IMG/VR virus record: IMGVR_UViG_3300017791_000207
Location: 51,288 to 115,287 of that record
Reading direction: 5' to 3' (one strand)
Source: a virus
Lineage: Duplodnaviria > Caudoviricetes
DNA: 64,000 bases
Shown: in pieces, positions 1,828 to 6,464 of the stretch
How the letters are laid out: the number at the start of each line of letters is the position of its first letter
Position numbering within the stretch: the stretch's first letter is position 1
Program-made: the position numbers and the translations under genes
The notes under the pieces: generated by a model
Databases searched by the model: none
Told to the model about the DNA's origin: nothing
Seen by the model: only the letters and a program-made list of their open reading frames with translations

Positions 1828-2235
1828 TTAGCAAAATTTTTGTTTTATTTCTTGATAAAATTCTTTACCTTCTTCTGAAAGGTCATTTTTAAACCACCAT
1901 TTATCATTATCATGTAGACAAGATAGCTCAATTAAAAATTCTTCTCCTAATTCTTGAATATCTTCGGGCAGCATATTCCATATTCTACTAATCCCTGCTT
2001 CTCCAAATACTTTATCAATTACTTTGCGTAGAGATTTAGGGAGCAATCTACCCACAGCATCTCCATCTGTTTCTACCATAAGGCTTTCTCCACTATACAT
2101 GACTTGTCCCCAATATCTATTTGTAAAGCCTCTGTAGTCTTCTTCCTCTTTCCATCCTATGCAGCGAGGATGTTCTTTGTAATATTGGACTGTATCATCC
2201 AATATCTGTCTTCTACGATTTTTAATTGGTTTCAT
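1828..2235 (-). CDS. Hypothetical protein, paralogue of 12290-12709
   Basis: Shared pattern LD...YY...RC...(D/C)(A/M)(V/I)GR...LP...EF...LHDN...W...L...G. Confidence 0.7.
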   Translation of the reverse strand: MKPIKNRRRQILDDTVQYYKEHPRCIGWKEEEDYRGFTNRYWGQVMYSGESLMVETDGDAVGRLLPKSLRKVIDKVFGEAGISRIWNMLPEDIQELGEEFLIELSCLHDNDKWWFKNDLSEEGKEFYQEIKQKFC

Positions 2236-5053
2236 TGTATAAATTTTTTACATAATAATTCCATCCACTCCATTCCATATAAACGCGCGGTTCTCTTGGT
2301 ACGATAGGGTTGTAAGGAAGATTTTTGAAATCTCTAATATTTTTTACTTTATTCACTAATAGATATTTAATAAAATCTTCGTAATTTAATTTAACATATC
2401 TTATTTTACTTGGAAAGAAATCCTCTTTATTATATTCTTTATAAAATCTATTAGGGTAAAGAGGTAAAATATTTTTTGGAAATTCTATGTTTAATGAACC
2501 TTCTTTCCACTTTCTATATTGTCTAATACTTGATATAATTCCATTATGCTTCTTATTTACTTCAATTATAGTTTTCTTAGCATCTTCATAAGAAATATAT
2601 TTTAATTCTTGTAACTTTTTCCAATTCCATTTACCTTTATAAACCGAATAAGGGTTTTGTGGAATATAAGGAGGATAATTGTCCTTTCTTTTTTCATGAG
2701 TGTTACAATCTAAAATTTCATTTCTTACAAACCATTTAATAGCTTCTTCAAATGATAAAAATCCTTCTTTATAGTTTAAAAATTCGTGCCATCTAAATTT
2801 AACACCATACCTTTTTTCAGGATCTTTTGGAAGATTTGGGGGAAAATCATTTTTTAAAGTCCATTTTTTATATTGTCTAAATGTTTTAATGTTTGAATGA
2901 TTCTCTAAAATATATTTTTTAGCTACTGGATAACTATAAATCTCAGGTTTGAAAATGTTTTTCCAACCAGGCCAATCTCTATAATATTCTCGTGGATATC
3001 GAGGACAACGATAATTTTTTATTTTTAAATATTCTTTCTCTGTATAAATCTGTTCTCTTTTTAAGTATGTTTTTAGTTCTTCTAATGTATAAAACTTACT
3101 TCCTTTTATGAAACTAAATTTAAACACTTCTTTAAAATCAAAAACTTTTAATTTATTACCAGAATATTCCAAAAACTCAATATTTCCCTTAAAAGTACTA
3201 TTATTAGGCTTGGCCTTAAAAGAGGTTATTCTTCCATCTTGTGTTTCTAATGCATTCAGTACTTCGATTAACTTTTCATAATCTTCTGATTCTGAGGGAA
3301 TTATTACATATCCTCGTTTTTTATTAGGATACTTACGAATGCATCTGCCCACTGATTGTACAATATCAATTTTACTTTTCTTGGGATAACCATATAAAAC
3401 AGCATCCGTATTCCTTACATCCATTCCTTCCTGAAAGCAATTTACCGAGGATATAACTGCCTTTTCAGCGTTTACAAAATTACCATATTGATTTTCATAT
3501 AAAAATTCTGTTTGTTTAGAATTAATAGTAGAAGTATTGTAATCTAAACCATGAATCTTTTGAAATTTGTCATAGACTTCTATAAATAACTCGGCTTCAT
3601 GAATAGTGGGATGATAAGTTATTATCTTTTTGATACCATATTTCTGTATTGATTTAATGAGTGCCAACGCAGAAACTAAAATTCGAGTCTTAATACCTAA
3701 CTTAATATTTTTATCAAGGAAAAATTCTTCATTTATTTCCAATATATTCCTTACTTCTTCAGATTTAAAACCTATACTAAGTATTTTATAATCTAAGACT
3801 ATTTTGTTTTGAATCATTTCGGGTAATGAAATATTGGATATAGTTTCTCCAAATTTTTCATTATTCATCCCTATACCCTCATTAAGAAAGATTTTTTCAG
3901 TAGCTGTTAAAAATAGGGCTTTCTCATATTTAGTAGAAGTAACTGCCGAAAGATACTTCTTATTTTCAGGTCCTGCTATTCTATGAGCTTCATCAAAAAT
4001 TGCTAATTGAAAATCAGGAAATTTATTAATGATGGATTCAAAACTTTTTAGAGTTGTAAATACTACAATATTAGCAGTCTTACTTATTCCTTGTATAGCT
4101 TCCATTTGCTTTTCTACAGAAGATGCAAGTAATGCAATTTTATTACTTTTAAGAGGTTTTTGAAATAATGAACCAAAGGCATAAAACCTGTGGTTAGGTA
4201 AAGAGTTCTTGAAAGCTTTTATTTGTTGATATAATAACATTCGGGAAGGGATAACTACTATCAGCCTTTTAATATCTAATTTCTTGACTATTTCAATAGC
4301 TGTATAGGTTTTACCTGATCCACATGGATGTATTACCTTACCTCTGTTATTATCCTTAAAAAATTCTACTGCTTTATTTATGGTGCATGTTTGATGTTCC
4401 CACTCTTTAAATTTAGTAGTTGTCTGTTGATCTTTTGTTGGAATGACTTCCAATTTCCTTACAAGAGGTTTTTCATTTATAAGAGTTGGAATAATAGAAC
4501 TAAAAGCATTTTCGATGTTATTTTTACTTAATTTAGTATCATCTTGAATGGTTTTTAGACAAATTTTCCCCTTTTGTAGAAGTGTGTAAACACCAATTAA
4601 GTTTTGAAGTGCTTTTTTGTCTTTCCCTTGGAGGTTAGTACCTTTATCAAAGGAGTAAGATTCACCACAGTTATTACAGTCATATCTTTTACCGCGCTGT
4701 ATTACATTGGTGCTACTACATTTAATACAAGTTTTGTTATCTCCCCATATAATTTTCTCAAAATAATCATATACAAAGCTTTCAGTAGATGAAATACTCT
4801 CAATATCTTTTCCTTCAAGAGGTCTTTCAAACTTATCATAGGAATTTCTATCTTGAATATCATAAACCTTAAAATAAGATTTATATTTCTTTTTGAGTAC
4901 TTCTAATATTTCCTCTTCTGTAAATTCTTTATCTTGTTCAGCTAAAAATAAATACAAATCAGAAATAAGATCATCTTTTTCAAAGAAGTTACTCTCAAAA
5001 GCACCATTTCTGAATTGTTTATCTATTATTTCGGATATTGTATTATATTCCAT
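2222..5053 (-). CDS. SF2 DEAH-box helicase with N-terminal IS1595-like zinc ribbon and C-terminal P-x-x-P-x-x-x-Y...W repeats
   Basis: Walker A HPCGSGKT, Walker B FDEAH, motif III LTAT, EGMDV, QSVGRCIR; CIKC...YDCNNC; about 5 C-terminal repeats. Confidence 0.85.
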   Translation of the reverse strand: MEYNTISEIIDKQFRNGAFESNFFEKDDLISDLYLFLAEQDKEFTEEEILEVLKKKYKSYFKVYDIQDRNSYDKFERPLEGKDIESISSTESFVYDYFEKIIWGDNKTCIKCSSTNVIQRGKRYDCNNCGESYSFDKGTNLQGKDKKALQNLIGVYTLLQKGKICLKTIQDDTKLSKNNIENAFSSIIPTLINEKPLVRKLEVIPTKDQQTTTKFKEWEHQTCTINKAVEFFKDNNRGKVIHPCGSGKTYTAIEIVKKLDIKRLIVVIPSRMLLYQQIKAFKNSLPNHRFYAFGSLFQKPLKSNKIALLASSVEKQMEAIQGISKTANIVVFTTLKSFESIINKFPDFQLAIFDEAHRIAGPENKKYLSAVTSTKYEKALFLTATEKIFLNEGIGMNNEKFGETISNISLPEMIQNKIVLDYKILSIGFKSEEVRNILEINEEFFLDKNIKLGIKTRILVSALALIKSIQKYGIKKIITYHPTIHEAELFIEVYDKFQKIHGLDYNTSTINSKQTEFLYENQYGNFVNAEKAVISSVNCFQEGMDVRNTDAVLYGYPKKSKIDIVQSVGRCIRKYPNKKRGYVIIPSESEDYEKLIEVLNALETQDGRITSFKAKPNNSTFKGNIEFLEYSGNKLKVFDFKEVFKFSFIKGSKFYTLEELKTYLKREQIYTEKEYLKIKNYRCPRYPREYYRDWPGWKNIFKPEIYSYPVAKKYILENHSNIKTFRQYKKWTLKNDFPPNLPKDPEKRYGVKFRWHEFLNYKEGFLSFEEAIKWFVRNEILDCNTHEKRKDNYPPYIPQNPYSVYKGKWNWKKLQELKYISYEDAKKTIIEVNKKHNGIISSIRQYRKWKEGSLNIEFPKNILPLYPNRFYKEYNKEDFFPSKIRYVKLNYEDFIKYLLVNKVKNIRDFKNLPYNPIVPREPRVYMEWSGWNYYVKNLYNETN

Positions 5054-5232
5054 TATATTCTAAATATTGTTTTGATTAAATTTTTAGTTGCCAAATCAGA
5101 AATAGTTTTAACTACGCCTGATTGTTGTCTTTCTAAATTTTGAGTATATCTTTTCTTATACTCTTCTCGAACTTGTTCAGATTTTTTTAATGACCATTTT
5201 CCATGAACAAGATATTTGTCTATTGTATTCAT
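5053..5232 (-). CDS. 59-aa basic protein between RT and helicase (MNTIDKYLVHGKWSLKKSEQVREEYKK...), absent from the ORF track
   Basis: Start overlaps the RT stop (ATGA); stop overlaps the helicase start (TAATG). Confidence 0.7.
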   Translation of the reverse strand: MNTIDKYLVHGKWSLKKSEQVREEYKKRYTQNLERQQSGVVKTISDLATKNLIKTIFRI

Positions 5233-6170: not shown

Positions 6171-6330
6171 TCTTTTATTTTATCACTCAACATCCCTGAG
6201 TGCTTATTACTAAGTCTCTTTCTACAATGATACTAAAGCCCGTTCAACTCATCTGTTTTTTACCACGGCTAGAAATGAGAAATATATTCTAACTTTATAG
6301 GTAGGGTCTAATTGTCTTTCTTTTTTATAA
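6171..6330 (-). ncRNA. DGR spacer RNA between TR and RT
   Basis: 160 nt non-coding segment directly 3' of TR and 5' of RT on the minus strand. Confidence 0.7.
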
Positions 6331-6406
6331 TAAACATACGTCTGAAGGAATCATCGTGTTGTTGTTCCAATTGTTGTTGTAGTTGACAACTCAGTCGTGA
6401 TCAGAC
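6331..6406 (-). repeat. DGR template repeat (TR)
   Basis: Non-coding, AAC-rich (GTC AAC TAC AAC AAC AAT TGG AAC AAC AAC); gap-free 76-nt match to 6543-6618 with 18 mismatches, all at TR adenines. Confidence 0.96.
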
Positions 6407-6464
6407 TTTGACTAAGGGGGTAGAATGTAGACACATTCAATTAGACCTTTTACTTGCTTTTATA

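Follow-up and report, generated by a model that had tools for sequence, protein, structure and literature searches.

The phage DGR described here carries, in its non-coding template repeat (TR), an in-frame TGA stop codon opposite Trp138 of the protein that it diversifies. Our analysis suggests that this TGA is probably a nonsense-capable codon at the edge of the mutagenised tract, tolerated as a by-product of A/G drift and not designed as a filter or a switch. The stretch of DNA that we analysed, referred to here as the window, comprises 64,000 nucleotides and corresponds to bases 51,288-115,287 of a 115,287-bp virus record; the phage genome has direct terminal repeats and is AT-rich, with a GC content of ~32%.

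According to the mechanism that we propose, the codon for a scaffold Trp would lie at the edge of the tract, and its template copy would drift between G and A in AT-rich phages. When the reverse transcriptase (RT) copies the TR RNA into cDNA, with adenines randomised, the products at this codon would be TGA (a stop, with 46 aa lost), TGG (Trp) or TGY (Cys). Only genomes with a sense codon, nearly always TGG, would persist, and homing events with a 5' junction on the 3' side of the codon would leave the resident TGG in place. The template stop would lower the yield of viable variants; presumably it is tolerated because the edge is the part least often transferred and failed homing products are cheap. 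What the sequences themselves show is the anatomy, the adenine specificity, stops that recur at the homologous codon and are confined to the tract edges, and VRs free of stop alleles; we infer the drift origin, the low cost and the partial transfer at the 5' edge.

Anatomy of the element and its template stop

The element lies on the minus strand in the order target, VR, TR and RT. The target gene (7016-6465) is a translated ORF (P0001) of 183 aa plus stop. Inside it, VR (6618-6544) covers residues ~133-157 and forms a gap-free repeat of the TR (6406-6332), a non-coding stretch of 75 nt with 25 adenines across which no ORF of at least 40 aa runs. The reverse transcriptase (6170-5229), of 313 aa and ending in TGA, matches RVT_1 with an E-value of 1.7e-15 and contains the motif LGNFTSQ, which fits the [ILV]GxxxSQ pattern of the DGR clade; searches with it retrieved hundreds of DGR RT relatives, and TR/VR pairs are present in relatives found in this way. 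VR and TR differ at 17 of the 25 TR adenines and at none of the 50 non-adenine positions. The end of VR is separated from the target stop by 77 nt, the target from the TR by 58 nt and the TR from the RT by 161 nt, and whole-genome scans allowing adenine mismatches found one VR in the entire 115-kb genome. The element has an RT of the DGR clade, an adenine-specific TR/VR pair and a VR at the 3' end of its target; it is a genuine DGR that has been active recently.

Pfam searches gave no Avd-like match in the neighbouring 84-aa and 59-aa ORFs, and not all DGRs have Avd. A perfect 10-bp inverted repeat, with arms at 6305-6314 and 6438-6447 (no strand assigned), brackets the TR, and its arms pair as a stem in the MFE fold of 6464-6171 as well as in the centroid fold; as a whole, this RNA fold is no stabler than shuffled sequence (z = -0.29), and the stem may not be significant. 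The RT stop overlaps the start of the 59-aa ORF (ATGA; window 5053-5232), which in turn abuts a 943-aa protein (2222-5053) with a zinc ribbon and SF2 helicase domains (ResIII/DEAD/Helicase_C). Among species-representative genomes, the closest RT relatives (L252, L253, L260 and L261) lie on contigs binned with Bacteroidota, specifically with Pedobacter, Cyclobacteriaceae, Dysgonomonas and Prolixibacteraceae, and these bins hint at Bacteroidota as the host phylum of the phage group.

Read in the frame of the target, the TR gives TCT GAT CAC GAC TGA GTT and VR gives TCT GAT CTC GGC TGG GTT. Re-reading the sequence confirmed exactly where the preliminary description had placed the template TGA (6393-6391, minus strand; the fifth TR codon when read in the VR frame) and its counterpart in VR, the TGG codon of Trp138 (6605-6603, minus strand). 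The TR translates in this frame as S-D-H-D-stop-V-V-N-Y-N-N-N-W and onwards. The predicted outcomes at the codon also hold: an unmutated A leaves a stop at codon 138 that would delete the last 46 residues of the target, a change from A to G gives Trp, and a change from A to C or T gives Cys. The 69% of adenines said to differ corresponds to 18 of 26 when an extra base (6331/6543) is included, as compared with 17 of 25 over the 75-nt repeat.

Substituted adenines are found on both sides of the codon, two on its 5' side (CAC>CTC and GAC>GGC) and many on its 3' side. Because the two adenines 5' of it are substituted, the TGA codon lies inside the transferred tract, and at least one homing event must therefore have spanned it; this rules out the proposal that cDNA integration never reaches the codon. 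Within the tract, defined as the span between the first and the last substituted adenine, the TGA occupies relative position 0.10.

In this phage of 115 kb, TGA does act as a stop, as had been assumed from the ends of several ORFs, and ORF coverage, tRNA content, TGA context and the end of the RT agree on this point. Under code 11, 86% of the 115,287-bp genome is covered by ORFs of at least 80 aa, of which 20 terminate at TGA. Counted over the whole genome, a single TGA, 12 TAA and 3 TAG are flanked on either side by an open frame of 70 codons or more, and the TGA of the RT coincides with the end point of its homologues. The sole tRNA in the genome is tRNA-Gln(ttg), and a search of the genome for a suppressor tRNA found none. 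We therefore rejected a reading of TGA as Trp, given the tRNA content, the 20 long ORFs ended by TGA and the single flanked TGA.

The target has eight homologues in a collection of 5.8 billion proteins, with identities of 45-73%, all from Logan or ENA assemblies (the closest, P0003-P0007, are 62-73% identical and come from Logan assemblies of 98-117 kb), and a profile search at E<=1e-3 retrieved 988 representatives of its family (50% clustering), mostly of 150-195 aa. Searches of INPHARED (DNA and protein), IMG/VR, JGI metagenomes and GTDB genomes returned no close relatives of the target; distant members in IMG/VR, JGI metagenomes and GTDB were reached through HMM-derived sub-alignments of the target family and the RT. 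In an AF2 model (pLDDT 81.7), VR lies on a beta-hairpin formed by strands 125-133 and 137-145 and followed by two helices, with Trp138 opening the second strand. The best PDB matches, none of them convincing, reached a Foldseek E-value of 0.46 and a VIA-align Z of 4.5, values that do not imply a difference in fold, and the nearest predicted structures, in BFVD, belong to uncharacterised proteins from crAss-like phages and other uncultured phages. The family is large and consists of small phage proteins without a Pfam domain and without a detectable C-type-lectin match; it may constitute a distinct scaffold for DGR diversification. Some of its representatives (P0071, P0105, P0078, P0013 and P0075) end inside or just past VR and lack the two C-terminal helices. 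Natural truncation of the allele, a frameshift or the end of a contig could each explain them.

The homologous codon in related elements

In related DGRs, we identified the homologous codon as the TR position that follows the S-G-G motif and matches Trp138. The window has TGA in the TR and TGG in VR at this position. The TR codon is TAG in L085/L161 (VR TGG), in L164 (VR GGG) and in L074/L075 (VR TGG), where one TR has TAG opposite TGG at two Trp codons, and it is TAA in L171 (VR TTG). The TRs of L169 and L129 have TGG, as do their VRs. Opposite the template stops, these VRs thus encode Trp, Leu or Gly, and never a stop. A heavily mutated template of L171 (TR1) was found with a DGR-aware scoring scheme and had been missed by an ungapped repeat search. 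The targets of L002 were set aside as uninformative on this codon, being weakly similar (27% over 82 aa) and without a Trp at the position.

In a maximum-likelihood RT tree, the window groups with L171, L085, L164 and L169 in a supported clade (95/98), and L074 falls near that clade on a long branch; the window RT is 53% identical to that of L171 and 44% identical to that of L074, and the targets of L074 and L085 are 36% identical. The preliminary description had proposed that TGG in related TRs would speak against its interpretation, and on this point the relatives are divided, with TGG in two lineages (L169 and L129) and a stop in four (L085, L164, L171 and L074). Since all three stops and TGG occur in the RT clade, the codon has switched between A and G at each of its two purine positions, and the presence of TAG, TAA or TGG in homologous TRs indicates that this variation is old and recurrent in the clade. 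Counting L074 and L129, five of the seven Trp-position lineages have a stop at the codon, a concentration at one codon that we read as drift but that could equally reflect selection.

Some of the relatives call for caution. In L164, whose VR and TR were compared at 2088-2160 and 2248-2320, the GGG opposite TAG can arise only with a T>G change outside the adenines, in a pair that otherwise differs at adenines alone. The RT of L085 (4137-5111) contains an in-frame TGA at 4692-4694, at the residue right after the SQ motif, where homologues have Trp, Tyr or Phe; either this RT is a fresh pseudogene or the phage reads TGA as Trp, and both TR/VR pairs of L085 are still adenine-only in their differences. 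Because of these two features, L164 and L085 may be decaying elements rather than working ones, which weakens their value as support for drift in active DGRs.

The relatives also differ in layout. An arrangement with two templates (target1-TR1-RT-target2-TR2), in which each small target of 145-195 aa is followed by its own TR within ~20-60 nt, recurs in L074 (3507-5810), L085, L164, L171, L162 and L169. Other family members have two or three tandem paralogous targets on one common TR, for example L076, L079 and L093.

The variation at the codon could also be adaptive, with T-R-R template codons kept as a route to Trp at a variable position, an explanation that we consider unlikely. Trp has a single codon, which mutagenesis of AAY can never give, and, AGG aside, TGA, TAG and TAA are the sole adenine-bearing codons capable of yielding it, at the price of a nonsense share; the other residues that they offer (Cys, Leu, Ser, Phe and Tyr) are only partly reachable from AAY. 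The residue-138 column contains Trp in seven of the eight close homologues. In keeping with a variable position, Trp accounts for 31 of 50 entries in the wider family, with Phe (4), Leu (3), Cys and Tyr among the other residues; Leu occurs besides Trp opposite TR stops (L171 and L248), and stops are present at the codon throughout a clade whose RTs are ~45-55% identical. However, the codons that replace template stops give Trp in eight of the nine alleles of the L222 group, discussed below, and in four of six small-target-clade codons. Outcomes are overwhelmingly Trp, and the position therefore behaves as constrained, not diversified. Most of the family has Phe or Leu there, templated by adenine-free codons (TTY and CTG) that are protected from mutagenesis, and AGG, which the TR2 of L074 uses, gives Trp without a stop.

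Quite improbable, in our judgement, is a private G>A change in the TR that followed the last homing event, or an assembly error, either of which would leave the TGA without a functional history. Such an origin would fit the TGG of VR, the Trp of the close homologues (7/8) and the fact that the genome is known from a single contig and a single protein-cluster member. It is difficult to reconcile with the stops found at the same codon in the TRs of L085, L164, L171 and L074, and the complete agreement of TR and VR outside adenines suggests that few mutations have accumulated after the last homing. Thus, the recent drift from G to A that had been offered as the simpler alternative is not the best fit when understood as private to this genome, given the TAG, TAA or TGG of homologous TRs; the A/G drift that we favour is a recurrent process shared with the relatives of this phage.

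Distribution and fate of template stops

A DGR-aware scan of all fetched loci yielded 333 TR/VR pairs and 198 non-nested TRs; the sample is limited to loci related to a single RT clade and a single target family, and its statistics ignore shared ancestry. An internal in-frame stop flanked by substituted adenines is present in 13 of the 198 TRs, representing about nine lineages (five of the 13 form the L222 group, a single lineage), and a further 15 have a stop only at the edge, giving 28 of 198 with any in-frame stop. Most VR Trp codons are templated by TGG (174 of 191), and 14 are templated by a stop, TAG in 12 cases and TGA in two, the window and L179.

Template stops are confined to the ends of the tract: every one lies at relative position 0-0.24 or 0.83-1.0, in lineages that are not independent, and the central tract holds 86 of the 138 TR TGG codons and not a single template stop. 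Most of the template stops face a Trp. As evidence for drift at the edge, this pattern is tempered by shared ancestry, the five TRs of the L222 group being one lineage. All stop-templated Trp codons occur in loci with GC <=0.38, a trend that is weak because the lineages are not independent. An earlier round of the survey counted five AAA codons in TRs.

Many of the stops at the 3' edge were rejected as transferred codons, and we read them as fixed differences at the TR/VR boundary. They comprise TGA/TGC in at least nine C-type-lectin DGRs, and TAA/TTY and TGA/TTC in small-target DGRs. In L214, L224, L229, L231, L236, L239, L246, L251 and L322, the last TR codon within the homologous stretch is TGA and every VR has an invariant TGC.

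Template stops might alternatively be a selected general feature, with edge T-R-R codons opposite scaffold Trp serving as quality control or as a generator of knock-outs, which we regard as very unlikely. If they are selected, full-length homing products must be mutated at the edge codon, or the null variant must be useful in some hosts, and the nonsense-avoidance rule for templates would be overturned in roughly 7-14% of DGRs in the RT clade.

The alleles found opposite template stops indicate what becomes of the stops. In the L222 group, which has 715-aa targets and one TR with TAG, nine distinct VR alleles on nine contigs comprise eight TGG, one TTG and no stop. No VR stop behind a long open frame was found in 280 TR/VR pairs, and no stop allele at the ~18 VR codons templated by transferable TR stops; both counts come from consensus contigs, which can hide minority stop alleles, a limit that applies equally to the drift reading. 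An apparent VR stop in L064 proved to be a frame artefact or the consequence of an upstream frameshift, and not a copied template stop. Given that about 33-45% of adenines are retained in VRs, it is very unlikely that all 14 single-adenine cases would be free of stops if selection did not act. The best reading is that selection on the target removes stop products and restores sense codons.

These results bear directly on the two functions suggested in the preliminary description, an ON/OFF switch that produces knock-out variants and a fidelity filter that removes faithful or under-mutated cDNAs, which together we now consider highly unlikely. The TGA codon does lie inside the transferred tract, a third to 45% of the events that cover it should install a stop, judging from the adenines retained, and some proteins of the family end inside or just past VR. 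Yet a switch would be expected to leave stop alleles, which are missing from the stop-templated codons and from the 280 pairs alike. A filter that selects for heavily mutated cDNAs is not reflected in the data either, as the median fraction of substituted adenines is 0.675 in VRs with a stop-bearing TR (n=14) vs 0.67 in the others (n=211; p=0.45), and the window, at 0.68, lies at the median. With independent miscopying at each site, selection on one adenine cannot enrich heavily mutated cDNAs; a filter would need errors correlated along the cDNA, of which none are evident here, and the copying of all 25 adenines without error is in any case exceedingly rare.

Significance and comparison with known systems

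TR codon composition is said to prevent nonsense codons (PMC10907252 / bioRxiv 10.1101/2023.09.22.558884; PMC4372165; PMC4159848; bioRxiv 10.1101/2024.11.15.621889). Codon usage that bars nonsense is a commonly stated property of DGRs rather than a strict criterion, and the window TR departs from it. Full-text searches of open-access papers and bioRxiv, a scope outside which most subscription journals lie, returned no paper on template stops opposite Trp, and our analysis adds a pattern of such stops at the level of the clade and of the position. An apparently active phage DGR and a measurable share of its relatives thus break the nonsense-avoidance rule for templates. This has practical consequences: diversity estimates for DGRs should subtract the nonsense share, and pipelines that drop DGRs because of "premature stops" may miss genuine ones. 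The pattern also bears on the strength of selection on the non-coding template and offers an indirect read-out of the extent of cDNA transfer along the tract, which could be tested in reconstituted DGR systems.

Among known systems, the DGRs of Treponema denticola provide a precedent for relaxed stop avoidance. The Lys codons (AAA/AAG) in their TRs weaken the nonsense-avoidance explanation (PMC4891356), and stop avoidance was accordingly already known not to be absolute. Like the TGA of the window, these codons can yield stops after adenine mutagenesis. They differ in that an unmutated AAA or AAG encodes an amino acid and becomes a stop only through particular substitutions, whereas the TGA is a stop when unmutated, so that its nonsense share is far higher.

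Recoded phages, which read TGA as Trp or TAG as Gln and include crAss-like phages (PMC12386605), resemble the present case in that an AT-rich phage has TGA where Trp is expected; the matches of the target to crAss-like phage proteins are a further shared trait. In contrast to recoded phages, the window genome has no signs of recoding and its TR is untranslated. A TGA at a conserved Trp/Tyr/Phe position of the RT occurs only in the relative L085.

Compared with the canonical DGRs, namely those of Bordetella phage BPP-1 (mtd-avd-TR-brt), Treponema TvpA, Legionella LdtA and Bacteroides and gut phages, the window likewise has a DGR-clade RT with the SQ motif, a non-coding TR adjoining the RT and a VR at the 3' end of its target. 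Its TR/VR differences are also confined strictly to adenines, and the central TR codons are mainly AAY. Unlike in the canonical elements, the transferred tract of the window TR includes an in-frame stop, Pfam revealed no Avd-like gene, and the 183-aa target is without a detectable C-type-lectin match.

Related elements identified here are the small-target DGRs (L074/L075, L085/L161, L164, L171, L169 and L162), with homologous RTs (44-53% identity) and homologous target families (28-36% identity). They share with it the order target-TR-RT and a stop or Trp at the same TR position. The window differs from them in having one target and one TR, and TGA rather than TAG or TAA; its RT is followed by the 59-aa ORF and the helicase, where the small-target DGRs have a second target.
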